Positions 33,373 to 62,985 are shown, numbered from the stretch's first letter. The stretch is DNA of 64,000 nt from Tagaea sp. (GCA_965279525.1 CBDIIB010000004.1:1-64000); one strand, 5' to 3'. A program made the numbers and translations. Notes: generated by a model from the sequence alone, not told the origin.

Positions 33373-33449
33373 CGGAGCGTAGCGCAGCCCGGTAGCGCAT
33401 CAGTCTGGGGGACTGGGGGTCGCAGGTTCGAATCCTGTCGCTCCGACCA
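33373..33449 (+). tRNA. tRNA-Pro (anticodon GGG)
   Basis: 77-nt cloverleaf from CGGAGCG to CGCTCCG-ACCA; anticodon loop CTGGGGG, T-arm GGTTCGAATCC, encoded CCA. Confidence 0.95.
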
Positions 33450-43770: not shown

Positions 43771-43944
43771 GGCTTTAGAAGCGTCCCGACGCGATAGCCT
43801 TTAGGGCGGATTTTTCGGTACGCTGTTGAGGAAGCGAGCCGTGAACCACGTGGATCCTATTCAATTGGCAGGTGCCTCTCAAACGTCGCCGAAGTTACGC
43901 ATTGACGGGTAGGGGGCTTGGCGTTCGACGCGCCTTCATTACCC

Positions 43945-44063
43945 TTGGTTTCCATTCATTTCCCTTAAATGCCGGAAATTATGGAAACGGCCATTGAAAT
44001 CATTGAATAACCGAAAGTCTGGGGGACTGGGGGTCGCAGGTTCGAATCCTGTCGCTCCGACCA
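43945..44063 (+). repeat. attR-like site 1: conserved arm plus tRNA-Pro 3' half (44016-44063)
   Basis: agtctgggggactgggggtcgcaggttcgaatcctgtcgctccgacca is identical to the tRNA; the upstream arm is shared with 56476 and 62807. Confidence 0.92.
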
Positions 44064-51121: not shown

Positions 51122-52029
51122 GCGCCGGCACGTCGACCGCAGAACTCGGCGAGGGAGTCGAGACGCCGTTCATGCGCTTCGCGCGCGACTTCACCGAATC
51201 GCGCGTCGCAACTGTGGGCTTGGCCGCATTGGCGGCCATTGCATTCCTGGCGGTTTTTGCGACCTGGGTGGCGCCGCAGAACCCCTACGATCTTGTGCAA
51301 CTCGACATCATGGACAGTCGGCTGCCGCCGGGCAGCCCCGCGTCGGCAGGGTTCACCTATTGGCTTGGCGTGGACGGACAGGGACGCGACATGTTGTCGG
51401 CGATTCTCTACGGCCTGCGCATCTCGCTTGGCGTCGGCGCCGGTTCGGCGCTCATCGCTGGCGCGATCGGCGCCAGTCTCGGCCTGCTGGCCGGCTATGT
51501 CGGCGGCTGGGTCGACGCGCTGATCATGCGGTTCGTCGATCTGCAGCTCTCCTTTCCGACAATTCTCGTGGCGCTGATGATCGTCGCGTTTCTCGGCAAG
51601 GGTGTGATGAATGTGGTGCTGGCCCTGGTGATCGTCGAGTGGGCCTATTACGCACGAACGGCGCGCGCGGCTGCCTTGGTCGAGCGCCGCCGGGAGTACA
51701 TCGAGGCCGCTGAATGCCTCGCGCTGCCGCGCTGGCGCGTGCTGTTCGTCCACATGCTGCCAAACTGTCTGCCGCCACTGATCGTGATCACGGCGATCCA
51801 GGTTGCGCGCGCGATCGCATTGGAGGCAACGCTGTCTTTTCTCGGGCTCGGCGTGCCGCCAACCGAACCCTCGCTCGGAATGCTGATTGCCAACGGGTTC
51901 GACTTCATGCTGTCGGGGCGCTACTGGGTCAGCTTCTATCCCGGTGTGGCATTGCTTGTCACGATCGTCTCGATCAACGTCGTCACCGACCAGTTGCGCG
52001 ACGTGCTTAACCCGCGCATCACCCAGTGA
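51118..52029 (+). CDS. Peptide/nickel-type ABC permease (DppC-like)
   Basis: LGVDGQGRD, EYIEAA and EATLSFLGLGVPP..PSLG. Confidence 0.9.
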   Translation: MSAGTSTAELGEGVETPFMRFARDFTESRVATVGLAALAAIAFLAVFATWVAPQNPYDLVQLDIMDSRLPPGSPASAGFTYWLGVDGQGRDMLSAILYGLRISLGVGAGSALIAGAIGASLGLLAGYVGGWVDALIMRFVDLQLSFPTILVALMIVAFLGKGVMNVVLALVIVEWAYYARTARAAALVERRREYIEAAECLALPRWRVLFVHMLPNCLPPLIVITAIQVARAIALEATLSFLGLGVPPTEPSLGMLIANGFDFMLSGRYWVSFYPGVALLVTIVSINVVTDQLRDVLNPRITQ

Positions 52030-52849
52030 ATTTTGCCGCTTCGAACCAGTCCCATTCCCACGGCACGATGGCGCGCAGCGGGCTATCGAACGACACCTGT
52101 TCGATGTCCGAGACGTCGCGCAGGCGACCGGCACGACGCAAAGCCACGTCGCGCGCTTCGCGGTCGGCGACAAATTCAAGCGGATCCTCGTCGAGATAGA
52201 GAATCGTCAAGCGGTTAGGTGCCGCGGCTGGATCGCGCGTGTTGCTGTCGGGGAAATTCCAGCTCGGTCCGCTGTCCTCGCCCCACTCGTGACGGAACAG
52301 GTCATCGGCCGCCAGTGTCCACGCTCCGGCCACGCCCCGGCACTGCAGCAGATCGGGAATACGGACTTCGTCGTACCAGCGAAACAGTGCGTGCGCACCC
52401 GGCGCCTTCGGATCGACGGTCGACAGCGTGATATGCACGCCCTTGGTCGGGCAAAACGGCAGGATGTCGGCCGTGACGGGAAGGCGCGGGCCCGCGTAGC
52501 CCTTGATCGGCGAGAACAGGCCGCGCATCGGGCGCTTCGTCCAGCGCACCTGCGGCGATCGGCCCCACTGGAACGAACGCTCCGAAAGCATGAAAAAGTC
52601 GTCGAGCGTCTCGCGGATCGGCTCGCGGAACCAGTACATGACCCCGTAGTGCGTACTTGCCAGTGACGGTGCCACGGTGCGGCTCGCCGACATGCAATCG
52701 GGCGAGCGGACCCAGCGGTCGTTCCACACGATGCCAGGCAGGATCAGGTTCTCCGGAATGTGGTCGAGCTGGTGCCATTCATTGTGCGCCCGATGTTTGG
52801 TCGGGTCGGTAATCTCGGCAAGCGAGAAATAGGCTTTGGCGGCGAACAT
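52019..52849 (-). CDS. Hypothetical protein (possible EthD/dimeric alpha-beta barrel tandem)
   Basis: HNEWHQLDHIPEN...PG and WYDEVRIPDLL...GVAG repeats; paralogue of 52855-53643. Confidence 0.65.
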   Translation of the reverse strand: MFAAKAYFSLAEITDPTKHRAHNEWHQLDHIPENLILPGIVWNDRWVRSPDCMSASRTVAPSLASTHYGVMYWFREPIRETLDDFFMLSERSFQWGRSPQVRWTKRPMRGLFSPIKGYAGPRLPVTADILPFCPTKGVHITLSTVDPKAPGAHALFRWYDEVRIPDLLQCRGVAGAWTLAADDLFRHEWGEDSGPSWNFPDSNTRDPAAAPNRLTILYLDEDPLEFVADREARDVALRRAGRLRDVSDIEQVSFDSPLRAIVPWEWDWFEAAKFTG

Positions 52850-52854
52850 GGGCG

Positions 52855-53643
52855 TCAGGCTCCGATCCGCTGCACGTCGACGTCGAACCAATTCCAGCGC
52901 CAGGGCACGATCGTCCGCAGCGGGGCGGCGAACAGGGGTACTTCGGCCGGCGTCGTGTTTGGCAACCGGCCGGCGGCGCGCCAAGCGGATTCCCGCGTGC
53001 GCATGTCGGCCATGAAGTCGAGCGGATCACCGTCGAGATAGACAAGGAGAAGGCGCAGCACAGTGGCAGCGGGATCGCGGTTCGGCCGGAAGAGACTACG
53101 ACCGGCGAAGGTCCATGCGCCTGCCGCACCGCGGCACTCCAGTAAGTCGGGGATTCGCACCTGATCGTACCAGTGCGACACCGCTTCTGAGGCCGCGTCT
53201 CGGCCAGTCAGTCGCGACATCGACAGGTAAGCACCGCGCGCCGGCCGGAAAGCGAGGGCTTCGGGCGACACGAGGGCGCGCTGCGTGACGTAGCCTTTCA
53301 GCGGAACCAGAAGTTCGTGCAGCGTCCGTCGGCGCCATTGCGCATCGGGTTGCCGGCCGGTGTGCAGGTCGCGACATGACTGCTGATGGAACTCGCGCAG
53401 GCTGCGCTCGGCCGGCGGGCGGAACCAATGCAATCCCGCGTACTGCGTGCCTGCATGCGCGCCCGCGCTGGTGCCGCCGGCCCTCACGCAGTCGGGCGAG
53501 CGAACCCAGCGGTCGCTCCATGCGACACCGGGTTGCGCGAGCGCCTCGGGTCGACGCTGGAGATGTTCAAGTTCGTTGTAAAGCGTGTGCTTTGACGGAT
53601 CGTCGAGCTCGTCGAGGGAAAGCATCACGAGTGGCGCGAACAT
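52855..53643 (-). CDS. Hypothetical protein, paralogue of 52019-52849
   Basis: Shares DRWVRSPDC, WYD.VRIPDLL.CRG.AGAWT and PLR.IVPW.W.WF. Confidence 0.7.
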   Translation of the reverse strand: MFAPLVMLSLDELDDPSKHTLYNELEHLQRRPEALAQPGVAWSDRWVRSPDCVRAGGTSAGAHAGTQYAGLHWFRPPAERSLREFHQQSCRDLHTGRQPDAQWRRRTLHELLVPLKGYVTQRALVSPEALAFRPARGAYLSMSRLTGRDAASEAVSHWYDQVRIPDLLECRGAAGAWTFAGRSLFRPNRDPAATVLRLLLVYLDGDPLDFMADMRTRESAWRAAGRLPNTTPAEVPLFAAPLRTIVPWRWNWFDVDVQRIGA

Positions 53644-56316: not shown

Positions 56317-56475
56317 TCTGTGATTGGGTCGGTCTGGTTGCGAGTCCCGGTTCCTTTGTGATGCCTACCTCGATATCCGCGGAGTCCTGAGGCGGCCCAG
56401 CGTCGCTCGACCGCAGTTGATTTTACGAACTGAATTGCCAGCACCTTCATGGCTTTCGACTAATTTTCATTGCTG

Positions 56476-56594
56476 TTAGTTTCCACTCGTTTCCCTTAAA
56501 TGCAGATAATTTTGGAAACTGCCATTGAAATCATTGAATAAACAGAAGTCTGGGGGACTGGGGGTCGCAGGTTCGAATCCTGTCGCTCCGACCA
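56476..56594 (+). repeat. attR-like site 2: conserved arm plus tRNA-Pro 3' half (56547-56594)
   Basis: Identical tRNA 3' half; arm gtttccactcgtttcccttaaatgc...cattgaaatcattgaata. Confidence 0.92.
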
Positions 56595-56702
56595 TCAAAG
56601 AAGCCCGCCGCCGGGAGACCGGTCGGCGGGCTTTACCGTTTTGGGCAACCATGGGAATGTGGAAATCAATAGTTTGCCTTAGCACAATCTTGGGGAGGGG
56701 AT

Positions 56703-57245
56703 ATGTTCGAGCGGGTTTGGAAAGGATTGGCTAGTGCTATGCTGGTCGGCTTGCTGTTCGTGGCACCGATACGACCGGTGCTTGCAGACGGCACCGTCTG
56801 CGTCTGGCATGGGGATAGTCCGGCTTTCCGCGCCGACGTTGAGGGGGCCGCTAACCAGTTCCGTAACAATCCGGGCGTTCGCCGCAGCGTAGTCGGCGGC
56901 ACCGTAGATGTGGCCCACGCAGCTTTTATTGAAATGACGCGTGTTACTGAATTGCTAGCCACAATCATCGTGAACAACATCCGGGTGATCGAAGATTCCA
57001 TGACGTATGTGGCACGGGCCTCTATCCGAGCGGAGTCCGAGAAGGGCCATTTCAACGAGATAAACCTCTATAAGGGCTATTGCCGGGCCTTCCCGCCAGA
57101 TACCGAAGTGCAATACTGGGTGCAGAAGTGGACGACCGGGTGGGACGGCTTCTGCCATGGCTGGATCAAGGTCGTCGACGGATCGTGGACAAACGTCTAT
57201 CTCTCCGGCACCGTGTTCAATTCCAGTTGCTACATAGTGATTTGA
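56703..57245 (+). CDS. Secreted 4-Cys protein, paralogue A
   Basis: RBS ggaggg and signal peptide ending VLA-D; motifs shared with 57966 and 58522. Confidence 0.78.
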   Translation: MFERVWKGLASAMLVGLLFVAPIRPVLADGTVCVWHGDSPAFRADVEGAANQFRNNPGVRRSVVGGTVDVAHAAFIEMTRVTELLATIIVNNIRVIEDSMTYVARASIRAESEKGHFNEINLYKGYCRAFPPDTEVQYWVQKWTTGWDGFCHGWIKVVDGSWTNVYLSGTVFNSSCYIVI

Positions 57246-57389
57246 ACGACATCTGGAAATTGTGCTCCGTCAGCGACATCGTTAGCTAACGGGATATTAC
57301 GGGCGCTGCCCATTGGCTCACTGCCCATGCGACGGCCTCCGCGCGACGAGTTGTACCTCCGCGGAGGCCGGTCCCTTAAAGATCAGTTG

Positions 57390-57711
57390 GCGCTGCGCAA
57401 ATGGATTGCTGCCGTCGGTGCGAAGACTGCCTACATCGAACCTGGCAGCCCCTGGGAGAACGGCTACTGTGAGAGCTTCAACGGCAAGCTGAGAGACGAG
57501 CTGCTCAACGCGGAGATCTTCTACAGCCTGAAGGAGGCCAAGACCGTCATCGAGGCCTGGCGGCGGCACTACAACACGATCCGTCCGCACTCATCGCTTG
57601 GCTATCGACCACCGGCGCCGGAAGCGCTGGTCATGCCGGTAGCCACGGCAATGGCGCAAACGGCACGACTAAACCAACATCCGTAACGGGCCACTCGGTG
57701 GGGGCCGGTCA
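57390..57711 (+). mobile_element. IS3-family remnant (transposase C-terminus plus right end)
   Basis: LRKWIAAVGAKTAYIEPGSPWENGYCESFNGKLRDELLN...YNTIRPHSSLGYRPP; terminal ...ggccggtCA at 57711. Confidence 0.8.
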
Positions 57712-57930
57712 CCGGTGCGATCCAGGGCTGGCCAGTGCCCGAGGCGCGCCTGTTCCTGAAAGACCTCACCGAACACGCCACCCAGCTCGAATCTGTCTAT
57801 GCCCACCGCTGGCGGCTGCACGACCTGGTGATCCGGGACAGCCGGGCGGTCATGCACCGGCCCCGGCGCTACGACCACAACAAGCCCCGCGACATGCGCC
57901 GCACGACTGTCGCCGACAGCGCACCGCTGC
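57712..57930 (+). pseudogene. TauD/TfdA dioxygenase C-terminal fragment
   Basis: GWPVPEARLFLKDLTEHATQ...YAHRW..HDLVIRDSR.VMHR...PRDMRRTTV begins immediately after the IS end. Confidence 0.7.
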
Positions 57931-57965
57931 TGGCGCGGCCGCTCAGAGCGGCTGGGATCGCCGCC

Positions 57966-58493
57966 TCAGTTCACCTTCGCATTAGGCGAGAATTCGCAGC
58001 TGGTCTTGATCCACGGCCCGGTCATCATCATCGTGACGTCGCCCGTCATCGTCACGCCGTGGGCGCAGATTTCGTGCCAGCCGGAGCGTTCGATCTGTGC
58101 GTAGACGTTGACGGCCGTTCCAGCCGGGAACGACCGGCAGAAATACTCGGAATAGAGCAGCGTCTCCCAGTGGCTGCCCTCGCCGGGCCCTCTGATATAG
58201 GCACGCCCGGTATAGGCGTTCATGACATCGGCCATCCACACGACGCCGACGAGACCCAGATAGCCGCGCACCTCGTCGATTGCCAGCTGGTTGGCGTACA
58301 TGTCAGAGATGCCGCGGACATTTGAATTGGCGCCCGTGTTTAGGATGCACAGCCGGTAAGTGCCGGGTAGCGGTTGTGTCACACGGTTCTTCGGCCAGTC
58401 AAACGGCGTCGGAACCGTCTGCGCGTACGCACCGGCCGCGATGCCAAGAACGAGAGCGAGCGCGGCGAGCCGCGTCGTGAAAATCCGATGCAT
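57966..58493 (-). CDS. Secreted 4-Cys protein, paralogue B (175 aa)
   Basis: RBS aaggag; signal peptide AYA-Q; closely similar to 58522-59049. Confidence 0.82.
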   Translation of the reverse strand: MHRIFTTRLAALALVLGIAAGAYAQTVPTPFDWPKNRVTQPLPGTYRLCILNTGANSNVRGISDMYANQLAIDEVRGYLGLVGVVWMADVMNAYTGRAYIRGPGEGSHWETLLYSEYFCRSFPAGTAVNVYAQIERSGWHEICAHGVTMTGDVTMMMTGPWIKTSCEFSPNAKVN

Positions 58494-58521
58494 CTTTGCG
58501 GCGTCTCCTTGCGTCGGAATT

Positions 58522-59049
58522 TCAGCGCGTCAGCGTCGCCCCGGCCGAGTAGGCGCATTTGGGCGAGGCCACGTTTCCGGTCAGCATCACCGTGGTGTCC
58601 TTGTTCATCTGGAAGTCGTGGAAACAGATCTCGCGCCAACCGCCCCGATCGATCTGGGTATAGACGCTGACCAGCGTTCCGGCCCGAAAGGAACGGCAGG
58701 CATACTCGCTGTAGAGAAGCTCCACCCAGTGGCCGGTTTCGCCCGGCTGCTTCATGAAGATGCGGCCGATATACAACAACAGGGGATCCAACGCGTAGCC
58801 GGCGGCCCATGCCTCGAGATTGTTGCGCACACCGCCGATCGAGAGCTGGTTGGCGCCGAGGCCGTCGATGCCGTTCGTGGTGGTGTTCGGCCCCACGTTG
58901 AACACGCACATGCGGAAGGCTCCGTTGGCCGGTGCCGTCAGCGTGTTCTTGGGCCAGTCCTGCGGCGTGGGAATCTGCGCGTGCACGCCGGCCGCCATGC
59001 AGAAGACAAGGGAGAGGGCGAGAGTAAGTGTCGCGATCGTCCGGCGCAT
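58522..59049 (-). CDS. Secreted 4-Cys protein, paralogue C (175 aa)
   Basis: Start MRRTIATL at 59049; signal peptide VHA-Q; shares PTP.DWPKN and LLYSEY.CRSF.AGT.V.VY.QI.R.GW.EIC with paralogue B. Confidence 0.82.
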   Translation of the reverse strand: MRRTIATLTLALSLVFCMAAGVHAQIPTPQDWPKNTLTAPANGAFRMCVFNVGPNTTTNGIDGLGANQLSIGGVRNNLEAWAAGYALDPLLLYIGRIFMKQPGETGHWVELLYSEYACRSFRAGTLVSVYTQIDRGGWREICFHDFQMNKDTTVMLTGNVASPKCAYSAGATLTR

Positions 59050-59089
59050 TGCGGGATTCCTATTTTGAAGTTGGCATTTCTTGCAGCGT

Positions 59090-61042
59090 TCAGCGCACCA
59101 GCAGGCGTGCCGCGTCCTCGAACATGCGGCGCAGACGCGTGGGCTCGGCCCATTCCTCCAGATCGATGTCCCCGGTACGCACGCCGCGGAACAGCATGTT
59201 GCGGTCCATGTGGCGTAGCGCCAGTAACTGGTTGGGCCAAAGGCCACCTAGGTCCATGACGGCCTTAGCACGCACCTGGCGCAACGCCTCGGGTTCGTCG
59301 CGCCCGCTCTGGGCAAGGCTTCGGTCCAGCTCGCCCAGATTGGCGTCGAATCCTGTTACGCGGCGCGGCGTCAGAAGGATGATGACCGACTTGGTGTAGT
59401 CGCGCCCGGTGCGGCGCTGGAAGAAGTACTGCAGCCCGGGAATGTCGCGCAGCACCGGTACGCCGCTCGACGTCGAGGTGATCTCGCGCTCGCTGAGGCC
59501 GGACAGGATCAGCGTCTCGTCGAAGCGCAGTCGGACATTGGCCGCGACCATGTTGCGCGATGTCTGGACGGACTGCGTGAAGGTCGCCGACGCGGCCGTC
59601 GTCTCGAAGAAGGAGCGCGCCGCCTTGACGCTGACCAGCATCGAATCATCATCGATGAAGGTGGGCGTCACCGAGAGGCTGACGCCCACCGGTTTGTCGT
59701 TGATCGTGCCGCCGCCCTGCGTGCTTACCAGCGCCACCGACACAGTCGACCCTGAGAAGAACTGAGCCGCCTGCCGGTCGAGCGCGAGAAGGCTCGGCCG
59801 CGCGATGATGTCGGCACTCTGGTCCGACGCATTGGCGATGTTGAGCGAGTAGCTGATACCGCCGCCGCTGGTCGTGCCGAGCGACAGAACGTCGGCGACT
59901 GAACCGGTGCGTGTCGTCGAGCTATTCGTTCCACGCGTTTGGTTGAGCGTACGTGAGACAAAGACGTTGAGGTTGTCGAGGAGGTTTACACCGTAGCCGT
60001 ACGACGTGACGTCGTCTGAACGCAGCAGCACGGCGTCGATCACCGCCATGCGCGGCATCGCGGAGCCGCGGCATGGGGCGGGAAGGGCGGGAAGGGCGAC
60101 GGTTTCGTCGCCGGTGGGCGATGAACTGTAGCCGGATGAACTTGCACCGCCATAGCTCGGGTTCGCCTGCTGCTGGTTGATTGCCTGCTGGCAGTCGAAC
60201 CAGGCCGGCGCGACTGGACCGCCAGCCGACGCCGTCGTCGGGGCGCCTGCGGCCGCAGCGGGTGTCATGGGCGCAGACGGGGACGTCACAGGCGCTGCCG
60301 GAGCCTGGGCCAGCAACGTTTCGCGGACGCTCTGCCATTGGCCGATCCGCCTCTCCATAATCTGACGCGTCGGCTCGTCGACTCCGGCCTCGGAGAGGAT
60401 GGTGTTGCTGCGCTCTTGCAGGCCAGCGGCGGCATAGATGAGCGAAGCGCTTGCCGCGACGCGCGCATTGTCCGGCTTTGCGAGCGACCGCGCGCGTTCG
60501 GTCGCCCACAGCGCCAGGTCGAAATCGCCGGCACCGTACGAAGCGGCAGCGAGAAGTCGGAGCGCTTCGACACTGTCCCCTTCAATGTCCAGGACGTATG
60601 CAGCGACACGCTGTGCCGCGGCATGGCGACCGATCTCCAGATAGAGGCGGGTAAGCTGAATGCCTGCAGCGACAAAATCGCGGCGCTGGTCGAGGGCAGC
60701 GAGGTAGCCAGTCTCGGCGAGTTCGGCGTAACCTCGATCACCGGCACGCACGCGTAGGTGATAGGAGAGCGCGTTCATGTGGTTGAGCGCGGCATTGCGC
60801 GGGTCGTTCTGGAGCGCTAGGGAGAACGCCCGATTGGCTTCCGCCGCGTCGCCTCGGGCGATGGAGTCGAGCCCACGTTGGGCGGCCTGAGCGGCCGCTC
60901 CTCGGGCTCGCTCGATGCGGATCGGCTCAAAGTTGGGGCCGAGCGCAACCTGATCGTGCGCGCACCCGGCGAGCACCGCTACGACTGCGGTAGCCAGACC
61001 CCAACTACTGAAGATGCTTGACTTGATCGCGATTCGCACCAT
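59090..61042 (-). CDS. Lipoprotein TPR-secretin fusion
   Basis: Lipobox VLAGC, TPR-like repeats, a Pro/Ala/Ser linker, then a secretin domain (IIARPSLLALD.Q.AQFFSG, VGVSLSVTP, ETLILSGL, SGVPVLRDIPGLQYFF...SVIILLTPR). Confidence 0.82.
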   Translation of the reverse strand: MVRIAIKSSIFSSWGLATAVVAVLAGCAHDQVALGPNFEPIRIERARGAAAQAAQRGLDSIARGDAAEANRAFSLALQNDPRNAALNHMNALSYHLRVRAGDRGYAELAETGYLAALDQRRDFVAAGIQLTRLYLEIGRHAAAQRVAAYVLDIEGDSVEALRLLAAASYGAGDFDLALWATERARSLAKPDNARVAASASLIYAAAGLQERSNTILSEAGVDEPTRQIMERRIGQWQSVRETLLAQAPAAPVTSPSAPMTPAAAAGAPTTASAGGPVAPAWFDCQQAINQQQANPSYGGASSSGYSSSPTGDETVALPALPAPCRGSAMPRMAVIDAVLLRSDDVTSYGYGVNLLDNLNVFVSRTLNQTRGTNSSTTRTGSVADVLSLGTTSGGGISYSLNIANASDQSADIIARPSLLALDRQAAQFFSGSTVSVALVSTQGGGTINDKPVGVSLSVTPTFIDDDSMLVSVKAARSFFETTAASATFTQSVQTSRNMVAANVRLRFDETLILSGLSEREITSTSSGVPVLRDIPGLQYFFQRRTGRDYTKSVIILLTPRRVTGFDANLGELDRSLAQSGRDEPEALRQVRAKAVMDLGGLWPNQLLALRHMDRNMLFRGVRTGDIDLEEWAEPTRLRRMFEDAARLLVR

Positions 61043-61072
61043 GGCTTATTTTCATATCAAGGAGCGAGCGTC

Positions 61073-61252
61073 ATGAACACCACCTTCGTGCTGCTGTTAA
61101 CTTTTTTCACTGCAAACAACCCACCGACGGCCGCCCTTGCGCACGAGTTTGACGGGAAGGCCGCCTGCGAGCAAGCCGGTCGAGCGGCGTCGGACGGCTT
61201 CCGACACGCGGCACACATTCAGGTCCGCTATGTCTGCGTACCGAAGGCCTGA
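61073..61252 (+). CDS. Small 59-aa protein with hydrophobic N-terminus and 2 Cys (absent from the ORF track)
   Basis: RBS aaggag; MNTTFVLLLTFFTANNPPTAALAHEFDGKAACEQAGRAASDGFRHAAHIQVRYVCVPKA. Confidence 0.6.
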   Translation: MNTTFVLLLTFFTANNPPTAALAHEFDGKAACEQAGRAASDGFRHAAHIQVRYVCVPKA

Positions 61253-61428
61253 ATGCATCGAACATGGCTGCGCCGGTATGCCGATTGCCGGTGGCCGAGG
61301 TGGTGATCGCTCTTTGCTGAAGGATGGGTTCTTAGCTAATTTGAGTATTCGTTCTGTTCTCGGAATCGGTTGCATTGACGCCAATCGACGAACGCGACGT
61401 CGGAGATTTTGTACATTGGAGGCGACTG

Positions 61429-61878
61429 GTGCTGGCAAAATTGAGCTGCCTTGTGATCGCGGTACTTGCGTCGTATTCGCTACCGGTTTTGGCGCAAGGC
61501 GCAGCCCAATGCCTTCGGCCGGACGTACTAAGCCGCAATCAGCGCTGCATGATGAATGTCTGCTCCCAGACCGTGACGTTGTGGCACTGCTTTCCGGACT
61601 CTGATGGGCCGCTCGGATGCGCGGCGACAGACGGTGGCGCCTTCACAGTGATTGCACCGGGCTATTGCGCGGATATGCATGTCGGCTACGAGAACGCGCT
61701 CGTCTCGAAGCCCATCCGATACTCAGCGTGTCTCGGCGCCAATACTGTCCGCCATGTGGTGCGTGGCACCAGCGTCACCTGCTCCGATCCCCAGGAGAAC
61801 GCAGGAACACGCGGTTTGCCCGCACTTCCCGGACGCCTGCCCCTGCCGGTCTACACGCATTACCATCCGCTGAACTGA
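61429..61878 (+). CDS. Secreted Cys-rich protein (8 Cys in the mature part)
   Basis: ggagg RBS before GTG at 61429; signal peptide ending VLA-Q. Confidence 0.62.
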   Translation: MLAKLSCLVIAVLASYSLPVLAQGAAQCLRPDVLSRNQRCMMNVCSQTVTLWHCFPDSDGPLGCAATDGGAFTVIAPGYCADMHVGYENALVSKPIRYSACLGANTVRHVVRGTSVTCSDPQENAGTRGLPALPGRLPLPVYTHYHPLN

Positions 61879-61888
61879 CGACGACTAA

Positions 61889-62767
61889 ATGCGTCTTCGG
61901 TCCGTCTTTGTTGCCGTAGTGTTGGCATTTTCTGCCGGCGGAGTTCTGGCGCAGTCGCCGGACCGCCCGCCTGCGGAACTTGTACAAGGGCGTACCGAGT
62001 TCGCGCGCAAGAACTTCAACGGTGCATACTTATTGCTGCTGCCCTTCGCCCATCGCGGAAATGCCGAGGCTCAGTTTCTGCTTGGCCGGATGTCGGACGA
62101 GGGAGGGGGCGGGATCGCGCTAGATCCGCGCGAGGCCGCGCGCTGGTACCGGCAGGCGGCATCGCTCGACTATGCGCCCGCGCACTATATGCTCGCGATG
62201 GCGTATGCGACGGGACGCGGCGTGACACAGACGCCGACGCTGGCGCTCGATCATCTCGAGAAAGCGGCAAGTCTTGACTACACGCCAGCGATCCTCGATC
62301 TCGCATCACTTTACGACGATGGCCGCGGCGTCGAGCCGGATCGTCCACGCGGCTATGCCCTGTTCCGGCGCGCGGCCGATCTCGGCAATACCGAGGCGCG
62401 CTTTGTCGTCGGCGAACGGCTGACGAGCGGCGACGGGACGGATCCCAATCGGGACGAGGCGCGCCGCTGGTACCAGCTCGCCGCCGGCCGTGGCCATCCG
62501 GGCGCCATGTTCCGGTTGGCGCAGATCGGCTATGGGCTCGACAAGGGCAACGATTCACGTGTCGTCGCCTATGCGTTCCTCACTCTCGCGATGCAGCGAG
62601 GTGCTTCCTATATTCGCGGCGAGGCGCAGAAGCTGCGAGACCAGCTCGCGCGCACGATGATCCAGACAGATATCGATCAGGCAATGCAGCGCGTGCGCAG
62701 TTGGAAACCGTCTCCCCCTATGCCGGGCGACGCATTCGATCCGGACGACCCCTATAACAGTCCTTAG
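61889..62767 (+). CDS. Sel1-repeat exported protein
   Basis: Signal peptide; repeats such as GNAEAQFLLG, EAARWYRQAA and Y..GRGV. Confidence 0.88.
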   Translation: MRLRSVFVAVVLAFSAGGVLAQSPDRPPAELVQGRTEFARKNFNGAYLLLLPFAHRGNAEAQFLLGRMSDEGGGGIALDPREAARWYRQAASLDYAPAHYMLAMAYATGRGVTQTPTLALDHLEKAASLDYTPAILDLASLYDDGRGVEPDRPRGYALFRRAADLGNTEARFVVGERLTSGDGTDPNRDEARRWYQLAAGRGHPGAMFRLAQIGYGLDKGNDSRVVAYAFLTLAMQRGASYIRGEAQKLRDQLARTMIQTDIDQAMQRVRSWKPSPPMPGDAFDPDDPYNSP

Positions 62768-62806
62768 GACGCATGATGCGCGAGGCGTGATCCGATCTGG
62801 CTGCGC

Positions 62807-62925
62807 TTGGTTTCCACTCGTTTCCCTTAAATGCCGGAAAATACGGAAAATGACATTGAAATCATTGAGATTTAGGAAAGCTGGGGGACTGGGGGTCGCA
62901 GGTTCGAATCCTGTCGCTCCGACCA
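62807..62925 (+). repeat. attR-like site 3: conserved arm plus tRNA-Pro 3' half (62881-62925)
   Basis: Identity to the tRNA starts exactly at the anticodon loop CTGGGGG; same arm upstream. Confidence 0.92.
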
Positions 62926-62985
62926 TCAAAGAAGCCCGCCGCCGGGAAGCCGGTCGGCGGGCTTTGAAGTCTTCGACGAAAACCT

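Follow-up and report, generated by a model that had tools for sequence, protein, structure and literature searches.

The 650-aa protein encoded by an intact ORF at 59090-61042 on the minus strand of the window (the whole 64,000-nucleotide stretch of DNA that was analysed) is, judged from its sequence, a member of a conserved, unnamed and undescribed family of lipoprotein TPR-secretins. The best reading of its function, to which we give about an even chance, is that it is a self-piloted secretin that exports folded proteins, delivered by Sec and encoded by neighbouring genes, with no pilus motor; export through the TPR-secretin we infer from gene order. Within the literature outside subscription-only papers, searches on TPR-secretin fusions, orphan or stand-alone secretins and liposecretins returned no description of the family, and in the available parts of a 2026 review, T2SS, T3SS, type IV pili and Tad are the only systems credited with secretins.

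Architecture and predicted self-piloting of the TPR-secretin

From the N terminus to the C terminus, the protein contains a lipobox, a TPR domain, a disordered linker, a secretin barrel and a C-terminal helical domain of ~85 aa, and the original prediction of a lipobox/TPR/linker/secretin architecture was thus borne out in every part; all ORFs that it named were also recovered at the positions given. The lipoprotein signal peptide (residues 1-27; 60962..61042, minus strand) ends in the lipobox LAGC at residues 24-27, and C27 is kept in at least 90% of 99 family members. A lipobox with a conserved cysteine is a trait of liposecretins; it is present here, lipidation itself being predicted, and the protein also passes our crude signal-peptide rule. 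Residues 49-246 (60305..60898, minus strand) form a TPR superhelix of 12 helices in the AlphaFold2 model (pLDDT ~95). Pfam matches to TPRs were weak from the single sequence, and the family profile matched consensus TPR proteins at E 6e-37. A TPR superhelix behind a lipoprotein signal is the trait of the PilF/PilW/Tgl/TadD pilotins, and we regard this domain as a pilotin-like module. It matched the type IV pilus TPR lipoproteins PilW (26.9 bits versus a cut-off of 154) and Tgl (22.4 versus 225) weakly, short of the equivalog level. The low-complexity linker (residues 252-325; 60068..60289, minus strand; pLDDT <50 in the model) ends in a conserved motif, W281-x2-C284 ... DET..LPALPxPC324, in which W281 and C284 never vary among the 99 sequences and C324 is kept in at least 90% of them.

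The beta-barrel core (residues 332-561; 59360..60049, minus strand) was delimited by Pfam, AlphaFold2 strands and Foldseek. Pfam Secretin (PF00263) matched residues 405-560 with an E value of 3.4e-30 (105.3 bits versus a cut-off of 27.5), and Foldseek matched the barrel model to GspD, PilQ, InvG, RcpA, BfpB and pIV at E 1e-13 to 1e-9. Only Secretin, TPR_19 and HemY_N were recovered in the Pfam scan; Secretin_N and other N-domain families were absent at E<=0.1, and no folded domain separates linker from barrel in the AlphaFold2 model, indicating that N0-N3 domains are missing, as had been predicted. The barrel is followed by a conserved domain of five modelled helices (residues 565-649; 59096..59350, minus strand), which we consider an S-domain analogue. 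Residues Y169, in the TPR domain, and D625, in this helical domain, are also conserved across the family.

A complex model of the TPR residues 28-250 with the C-terminal residues 562-650 gave an ipSAE of 0.90 in all three runs, versus 0.00 for the best of three control pairs. Contacts agreed by at least 87% between runs, both partners had a pLDDT of at least 75, and the conserved pair Y169-D625 sits in the predicted interface. Of 157 solved complexes, 116 attain this docking mark, as do 2 of 215 mismatched pairs; these counts are approximate, since our own alignment was used. The two docked domains belong to one polypeptide and were aligned row by row, and contacts in cis and in trans look the same in such a model. 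The model shows a likeness to pilotin binding at the level of predicted contact and not of function. Together with the conserved lipobox, this predicted docking lends support to the self-piloting that had been proposed for the protein.

The secretin operon and its repeat-bounded islet

The secretin gene lies upstream of two co-oriented genes, separated by gaps of 40 nt and 28 nt, for 4-Cys signal-peptide proteins of 175 aa each: paralogue 2 (58522..59049, minus strand), starting 40 nt past the secretin stop codon, and paralogue 1 (57966..58493, minus strand), the last gene of the operon. They are 47% identical (E 4.5e-48), in agreement with the prediction of two paralogous secreted proteins downstream of the secretin, and both are candidate cargo. 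A third paralogue of 180 aa, also with a signal peptide (56703..57245, plus strand), is similar to paralogue 1 only in its C-terminal 80 residues (87-166; 28%, E 6.6e-6). Each of the three has four cysteines in the mature part, and the whole genome contains no further copies. Paralogue 1 belongs to no Pfam or NCBIfam family. Its AlphaFold2 model (pLDDT 75) has a helix at the N terminus and a beta-sandwich at the C terminus; Foldseek found nothing similar at E<=0.001, and ESM Atlas scores (<=0.81) were uninformative. VIA-align placed it closest to the membrane-binding domain 4 of cholesterol-dependent cytolysins (best Z 8.3-8.5; 5cr8: rmsd 2.2, 90 residues), which is a lead only, because this Z lies in the tool's 'common' range.

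Divergent from the secretin gene, at a gap of 30 nt, is a gene for a 59-aa protein with two cysteines (61073..61252, plus strand), whose counterpart at the same place in the Tagaea locus is 85% identical. It is followed on the plus strand by a Cys-rich protein with eight cysteines past the predicted cleavage site (61375..61878), which has no Pfam or NCBIfam family, and by a Sel1-repeat protein with a signal peptide (61889..62767; PF08238, E 3.7e-31). The claim that every other intact ORF of the cassette begins with a signal-like N terminus stood in part: the three 4-Cys paralogues and the Sel1 protein pass the crude rule, whereas the signal peptide of the 8-Cys protein was recognised by eye only, from an internal GTG start, and the hydrophobic N terminus of the 59-aa protein lacks a charged n-region before the hydrophobic stretch. 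Membership of the Sel1 and 8-Cys proteins in the module, also claimed at the outset, is unsupported, because neither has a counterpart in any of 39 related loci. The sole remaining ORF (119 aa; 57327..57686, plus strand) is a fragment of an IS3-family transposase with the C-terminal rve_3 domain only (PF13683, E 3.6e-31), and the cassette holds no ATPase, pilin or platform gene, as predicted. Promoter and terminator sites were no commoner than in shuffled sequence.

The cassette is a 6.2-kb islet between 165-nt repeats that bear the 3' half of tRNA-Pro. The left repeat (56471..56634, plus strand) consists of an AT-rich segment, the 3' half of tRNA-Pro(GGG) and a terminator-like hairpin, and the right one (62802..62965, plus strand) is a direct repeat of the same unit; the direct repeats D1 and D2 are 84-96% identical to 62802-62965. 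Repeat positions 80-124 are identical to the 3' terminus of the genuine tRNA-Pro (33373-33449). An intact tRNA or tmRNA within the boundary repeats was ruled out by Rfam, the sole match being a sub-threshold one to ar14 (27 bits versus 58.8). The same repeat-bounded unit also adjoins tRNA-Pro in Tagaea. The islet contains no integrase, the nearest PF00589 match being at C4:286341. In our reading, the module arrived in the genome on this small islet at tRNA-Pro.

Neighbourhoods of the family and the machinery of its carriers

The family comprises 189 proteins at E<=1e-3 that are conserved along their full length and come from Alpha-, Beta- and Gammaproteobacteria, Desulfobulbia and Campylobacterales. 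Across 39 related loci, a signal-peptide-like N terminus was found in 23 of 26 co-oriented genes at position +1 and 13 of 15 at position +2, versus 61 of 290 genes more than three positions away; these counts come from a crude home-made rule and greedy ORF calls, on loci that are phylogenetically non-independent. The neighbours fall into at least 10 BLAST-unrelated families of 80 to ~970 aa, often in paralogous runs and often Cys-rich, and in Polynucleobacter loci a DsbA-like gene adjoins three neighbours with 12-14 cysteines. Two of the families accompany the secretin across classes or phyla: F2 (L026, L028, L029, L032, L034 and L038) and F6 (L031, L035, L039 and L044). The 4-Cys family is rare (5 representatives in 1.84 billion proteins) and occurred among the 39 loci in the Tagaea locus only, as the C-terminal domain of a 390-aa protein. 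This rules it out as the general partner of TPR-secretins, a role that a survey for its co-occurrence might have revealed; homology to a 4-Cys family of Rheinheimera and Methylophilaceae was rejected as well (hhalign probability 3%). On the sequence evidence, the general partner is instead a neighbouring signal-peptide protein, a role filled by many unrelated families.

No PilMNOP, Gsp, Tad or other pilus/T2SS part was present among the 71 scanned neighbours of these 39 loci, and an ATPase occurred within ~10 kb in only two, L026 and L039, related Rhodocyclales loci with an MshE-like ATPase gene 1-2 kb upstream. Homologues thus did not sit in Tad or T2SS loci; a consistent setting in complete loci of these kinds had been named with the original prediction as grounds for refuting it. 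The predicted orphan status of the secretin also held, as it is the sole secretin of the cassette and of the whole genome (97% complete, 5 contigs). The genome search covered T2SSE, T2SSF, prepilin peptidase and Zot. No T2SSE ATPase (PF00437) exceeded the cut-off, and T2SSF platform (PF00482), prepilin peptidase (PF01478) and Zot/pI phage assembly ATPase (PF05707) proteins were all missing from the genome. Hence, GspE/GspF for a T2SS, prepilin peptidase and pilus ATPase for type IV pili, and a TadA-type ATPase with TadB/C for Tad are all lacking. The option that the secretin plugs into host machinery of the kinds covered is excluded for the present genome, because the genome has none of it. 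T2SSE is also missing in two other carriers, a Tagaea MAG and a Ferrovibrio MAG, and was found in 1 of 21 genomes of the genus.

Proposed secretion route, alternatives and known systems

Secretins are parts of large ATP-driven, envelope-spanning machines, and in the known cases it is a filament or needle that opens the secretin gate; to our knowledge, a motor-less secretin has no precedent. We propose that the TPR-secretin is exported by Sec and, as the lipobox suggests, lipidated at Cys27. The lipid anchor and the fused TPR domain would then do in cis the job of a separate pilotin of the PilF, Tgl or TadD type, bringing the secretin to the outer membrane and holding its C-terminal helical domain, in line with the predicted docking. 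By homology, the core would form the usual multimeric gated pore. A pseudopilus, pilus, needle or phage could not power this pore, because N0-N3 rings are absent and the genome lacks the ATPase, platform, prepilin peptidase and phage assembly protein. The most likely job of the pore would be the outer-membrane passage of adjacent-encoded, Sec-delivered, periplasmically folded, disulfide-bonded proteins, here the pair of 4-Cys beta-sandwich proteins in the operon, perhaps joined by the third paralogue. More tentatively, and at somewhat less than even odds, the family as a whole may be the core of an unrecognised secretion route that is self-piloted, works without ATPase, pseudopilus or platform, releases adjacent-encoded, Sec-delivered, folded and often disulfide-rich proteins, and spreads, with exchangeable cargo, as a mobile unit of two to four genes.

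A rather unlikely alternative is that the TPR-secretin is an outer-membrane pore for something else (polymer, DNA, small molecules or uptake), with the adjacent signal-peptide proteins acting as periplasmic or surface accessories or being co-regulated envelope genes. A link between secretins and the export of slime polymer is on record for cyanobacteria and myxobacteria (PMC12475490). Loci without an obvious cargo gene do exist, in which UbiX/UbiD genes (L025) or a TonB-dependent receptor gene (L040) come next; MlaA/MlaC are further neighbours unlike cargo, and the two-component system found divergently upstream in 11 loci would fit any regulated envelope function. Accessories, however, are expected to be conserved, and the unrelated families and broad size range of the neighbours are not what this predicts; polysaccharide synthase, glycosyltransferase and DNA-uptake genes numbered 0 among the 71 neighbours.

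We consider it improbable that the secretin serves, in trans, as a second outer-membrane exit for a T2SS, type IV pilus or Tad machine whose genes lie elsewhere. Of 40 carrier genomes, 37 encode one or more T2SSE ATPases at some place, so that co-operation in trans could apply to most of the family, and both the MshE-like ATPase near the gene in two loci and the best partial NCBIfam matches, to PilQ and GspD, point the same way. However, the gene is under purifying selection although the present genome and the two MAGs lack T2SSE, and the present genome lacks the platform protein and prepilin peptidase as well; the N0-N3 domains, by which secretins are coupled to inner-membrane components, are missing; and the L039 ATPase gene stands alone, with a Crp-like regulator and a GGDEF gene on its two sides and neither platform nor pilin genes nearby. 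Very improbable is a third explanation, in which the cassette is decaying mobile DNA and the secretin a functionless orphan that has lost its former partners. The IS3 fragment in an islet without integrase and the presence of the islet in 2 of 50 genomes of the taxonomic family would suit decay, but all ORFs are intact, the same architecture and motor-less neighbourhoods are kept by the family in many lineages, and comparison with the Tagaea copies, at a dS of 0.8-1.2, gave a dN/dS of 0.13 for the secretin (0.04 in its core) and 0.05 for the 59-aa gene. By these rates, the secretin gene is under purifying selection and not a relic.

If its own pilotin, the lack of platform-coupling domains and purifying selection in machine-free genomes all hold, the TPR-secretin would call into question the idea that a piston is indispensable to secretin gates, and would contribute a small, transferable unit made up of a single channel gene and its cargo. 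It would also offer a minimal system of two or three genes for studying secretin targeting, assembly and gating, and it draws attention to 10 or more protein families, probably secreted, that are uncharacterised.

The TPR-secretin shares the core fold and motifs of GspD, PilQ, InvG/SctC and phage pIV, and differs from these classical secretins in having neither N0-N3 nor partner machinery; in place of the periplasmic N0-N3 domains of GspD, the model shows TPR, disordered linker and barrel. Every NCBIfam secretin equivalog scored far under its cut-off: PilQ 78.1 bits versus 284, GspD (TIGR02517) 70.5 versus 351 with the match confined to residues 375-562, MshL 49 versus 250 and SctC (TIGR02516) 41.3 versus 238. 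HxcQ, the 'liposecretin' of the Pseudomonas aeruginosa Hxc T2SS, is part of a complete T2SS with ATPase and pseudopilins and has periplasmic N-domains. In contrast, the TPR-secretin has a fused TPR domain, no N0-N3 and no T2SS in its genome. Both are lipoprotein secretins, and HxcQ is believed to be carried to the outer membrane along the Lol pathway, with no pilotin of its own as a second protein (PMC3230066, citing Viarre et al. 2009). In RcpA/TadD (PDB 8odn), assembly of the secretin requires a TPR lipoprotein that clasps its C-terminal end (PMC10499894); the same two parts, which also meet in PilQ with PilF/PilW/Tgl, are predicted to bind in the TPR-secretin. Here, however, a single polypeptide comprises both pilotin and secretin, with a disordered linker of ~75 residues between them, what is bound is a folded helical domain of 85 aa rather than a 4-residue tail, and no Tad or pilus machine is present in the genome. 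The Slam channel, from what is accessible of PMC8406197 and PMC5449769, is a monomeric DUF560 barrel, whereas the TPR-secretin is of the multimeric secretin type and had no DUF560 match in the Pfam scan. According to the same excerpts, Slam (type XI secretion) likewise fuses a periplasmic TPR domain to an outer-membrane channel, and its gene adjoins variable Sec-dependent cargo genes with no dedicated ATPase. As a secretin-plus-cargo module, the TPR-secretin would follow a logic comparable to that of two-partner secretion or of the TPR-barrel Slam/T11SS.

Architecture and family of the TPR-secretin

All ORFs listed in the original prediction of a minimal secretion module at 56703..62767 were present in the window. 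The central gene (59090-61042, minus strand) encodes a 650-aa protein, in which a Pfam scan detected a secretin domain (PF00263) at residues 405-560 (E 3.4e-30; 105 bits versus a cut-off of 27.5); TPR matches were weak, and neither Secretin_N nor any further N-domain was matched. NCBIfam returned partial matches to every secretin class, each far under its cut-off (PilQ, 78 versus 284 bits; GspD, 70 versus 351; MshL, 49 versus 250; SctC, 41 versus 238), and weak matches of the N-terminal part to PilW and Tgl, both of them TPR lipoproteins that act as pilotins for type IV pili. The lipobox LAGC at residues 24-27 suggests that the secretin is lipidated. The AlphaFold2 model, built with 99 relatives as input (mean pLDDT 78.6), consisted of a signal helix, 12 TPR helices at 49-246 (pLDDT about 95), a disordered stretch at 252-325, a beta domain at 332-561 and five C-terminal helices at 565-649. 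The noted lack of recognizable N0-N3 domains was borne out, as Pfam found no N-domain and the model placed no folded domain there. Foldseek matched the beta domain to GspD, PilQ, InvG, RcpA, BfpB and phage pIV, all at E 1e-13 to 1e-9, a significance that was similar across secretin classes and favored none of them. Comparison of the family profile with solved structures confirmed both halves (consensus TPR, E 6e-37; GspD, E 7e-20). The protein presumably forms a multimeric pore.

A protein search of 5.8 billion sequences yielded 189 matches to the secretin at E<=1e-3. The best 120 of the 189 were nearly all 600-720 aa in length, with query coverage of 88-100%; many of these 120 carried precomputed TPR and secretin domains, and almost none was meaningfully named. 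Family alignments of 17 and 99 members retained the lipobox cysteine, the TPR motif LAETGY, the secretin motifs and the C-terminal domain with D625; W281 and C284 were invariant and conserved together with C324. Scanning one genome per prokaryotic species located 39 TPR-secretin loci, hosted by Alpha-, Beta- and Gammaproteobacteria, Desulfobulbia and one Campylobacterales MAG.

In RcpA/TadD, a TPR lipoprotein grips the C-terminal residues of the secretin and is required for assembly (PMC10499894), and HxcQ, a secretin that carries a lipid, is believed to get to the outer membrane unaided (PMC3230066). We docked the TPR domain (residues 28-250) to the C-terminal domain (residues 562-650), with a family alignment for each, and obtained a score of 0.90 in three of three runs, the top of three controls being 0.00. 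Among solved complexes, 116 of 157 attained a score of 0.90, as did 2 of 215 mismatched pairs, a calibration that is only rough because our own alignment was used. The runs had at least 87% of contacts in common, partner pLDDT was at least 75, and the conserved residues Y169 and D625 were in contact. The models support binding of the TPR domain to the C-terminal domain, with within-subunit and between-subunit contact indistinguishable, and part of the docking confidence may reflect likeness to the solved TPR-pilotin/secretin complex.

Secretion motors in the source genome and around homologues

The source genome (4.35 Mb, 5 contigs, 97% complete) contained one PF00263 secretin, the 650-aa protein. 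Genome-wide, PF00437, which covers the T2SS, type IV pilus and Tad ATPases, gave no match over cut-off (top, 18.7 bits within an 899-aa frame), and neither the platform protein (PF00482) nor the prepilin peptidase (PF01478) was found; the expected control genomes were all matched in these searches. Phage Zot/pI (PF05707) was likewise not found in the source genome, in a search whose control matched only 4 of 14 genomes. One of 21 genomes in the genus had a T2SSE match over cut-off. Relative to the Tagaea copy, dN/dS of the secretin was 0.13 overall (barrel, 0.04; TPR domain, 0.15; C-terminal domain, 0.18) and that of the 59-aa gene was 0.05. The secretin gene is under purifying selection despite the missing motors.

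Among 71 neighboring proteins of homologues that were scanned, there were no PilMNOP, Gsp or Tad parts and one T2SSE ATPase. A tblastn search with this ATPase across the 39 loci (565,887 bases) gave matches in two Rhodocyclales MAGs alone, each an MshE-like ATPase gene (T2SSE plus MshEN domain) 1-2 kb upstream of the TPR-secretin (L039:2336-4129 and L026:110-2020, both minus strand). The L039 gene is solitary, flanked by genes for a Crp-like regulator, a GGDEF cyclase and a UDG-family protein. The neighbor scan and the tblastn search thus place the homologues outside complete Tad or T2SS loci, the opposite of what would have refuted the original prediction. Pointing the other way, T2SSE ATPases were encoded somewhere in 37 of the carrier genomes, of which 40 were examined, the exceptions being the source genome, a Tagaea MAG and a Ferrovibrio MAG, the latter two perhaps incomplete. 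Motor independence is therefore shown only in genomes without a motor, and we infer it for the rest of the family.

Candidate cargo genes and the tRNA-Pro islet

The secretin gene is followed on its own strand by paralogue 2 (58522..59049) and paralogue 1 (57966..58493), with intergenic gaps of 40 nt and 28 nt. Both products are 175 aa long and share 47% identity (E 4.5e-48); the similarity of a third copy (56703-57245) to them is confined to its C-terminal 80 residues (E 6.6e-6). The source genome has no copies beyond these three, all of which carry a signal peptide and have four cysteines in the mature protein. The family is very small, with just 5 representatives at E<=0.001 in a set of 1.84 billion proteins. 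Paralogue 1 was modeled (pLDDT 75) as a helix followed by a beta-sandwich, the closest structures being the membrane-binding domain 4 of cholesterol-dependent cytolysins and other Ig-/transthyretin-like sandwiches (Z 8.3-8.5, a level rated common by the tool). The 59-aa gene is divergent from the secretin, 30 nt apart, and beyond it are genes for a Cys-rich protein and a Sel1-repeat protein.

For the 39 loci, neighboring ORFs were called greedily, longest first, and signal peptides by a crude rule; L023, whose plus-strand secretin ORF was uncalled, was left out of the counts. The co-oriented gene directly downstream passed the rule in 23 of 26 cases, the following one in 13 of 15 and the one directly upstream in 7 of 16; the figure for genes beyond the third position was 61 of 290. 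In 28 of 37 loci, the secretin was flanked by a co-oriented signal-peptide gene. Several of the nine misses were technical: an antisense ORF masked such a gene in the Tagaea (L014) and Ferrovibrio (L015) MAGs, contig ends cut L041 and L051, and in L033 the signal-peptide genes were one position farther. L025, followed by UbiX/UbiD genes, and L040, followed by a TonB-dependent receptor gene, look like true exceptions. The association is strong and varied. The neighbors form at least 10 families unrelated by BLAST, 80 to about 970 aa in length, many of them arranged as 2-4 consecutive paralogues and many rich in cysteine (4, 6, 8 or 12-14 Cys), and two families stay with the secretin in distant hosts. 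For most neighbors Pfam gives no family, the exceptions being an amidohydrolase, a DUF676 esterase-like protein and a chagasin-type inhibitor. In the Ferrovibrio MAG, the gene after the secretin (L015:6430-8655, plus strand) codes for a signal-peptide protein of 741 aa that gives a marginal MACPF match (21.4 bits versus a cut-off of 21.5); upstream in this locus, a gene for an ECF sigma factor adjoins an ORF that belongs to no family. In Polynucleobacter, a DsbA-like thioredoxin gene (L042:658-1482 and L049:8866-9702, both minus strand) is divergent from the TPR-secretin, and downstream come one to three paralogous genes (L049 has three), whose products are 258-280 aa long and each contain 12-13 cysteines.

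Eleven loci carried a LuxR-type response regulator gene divergently upstream of the TPR-secretin, adjoined by a histidine kinase gene in the Pfam-scanned loci. The LuxR-type regulator and HisKA_3-type kinase of Rheinheimera and Methylophilaceae (L017:6262-9531 and equivalents in L018-L022, L024, L033 and L045) may be a dedicated regulator. The Rheinheimera loci have an extra CheW-receiver (CheV-like) gene.

Direct repeats at 56471-56634 and 62802-62965 (84-96% identity) bound the cassette, each containing the 3' 45 nt of tRNA-Pro(GGG), the intact gene of which is at 33373-33449. Repeats with the 3' half of this tRNA were found at 43944-44063, 56476-56634 and 62802-62965 and, past the window, at C4:84848, 121019 and 125339; since all copies are on the same strand, the series from the intact tRNA suggests a tandem array of small islets. 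The secretin islet contains an IS3-family remnant (119-aa ORF, 57327-57686, plus strand; C-terminal rve_3 part alone) and no integrase, the closest PF00589 match being at C4:286341. In the Tagaea MAG, an equivalent unit abuts an intact tRNA-Pro and ends in a partial copy; it comprises the secretin, at 82% identity, together with the 59-aa gene and, downstream, a single gene for a signal-peptide protein of 390 aa, which has only a C-terminal sandwich domain (about 80 aa) in common with the window's paralogues. Within the taxonomic family, 2 of 50 genomes carry the secretin, the source genome and one congener. A sub-threshold match to the alphaproteobacterial sRNA ar14 (56596-56719, minus strand; 27.3 bits versus a gathering threshold of 58.8, E 0.057) overlaps the boundary-repeat hairpin and is probably due to chance. 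Outside the islet, adjacent ORFs of 321 and 262 aa (52019-52984 and 52855-53643, both minus strand) resemble paralogues of one another by eye.

Possible roles and relation to known systems

The architecture, the family, the islet, the motor-less source genome, the purifying selection and the association with signal-peptide genes are observed. We give about an even chance to a self-piloted secretin that would export periplasmic proteins encoded by neighboring genes. We consider another pore function unlikely. Use in trans by a machine encoded elsewhere is improbable; most carriers do encode a T2SSE ATPase, and for the source genome this reading is excluded. That the cassette secretin is a relic is highly improbable given the selection on its gene.

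In the openly accessible literature, including one recent review, we found neither a fusion of TPR and secretin domains nor a secretin system that stands alone described. If export of the neighboring proteins is confirmed, the TPR-secretin would be a new secretion route. What sets it apart from known secretins is the fused putative pilotin, the lack of N-domains and the motor-less context linked to candidate cargo.
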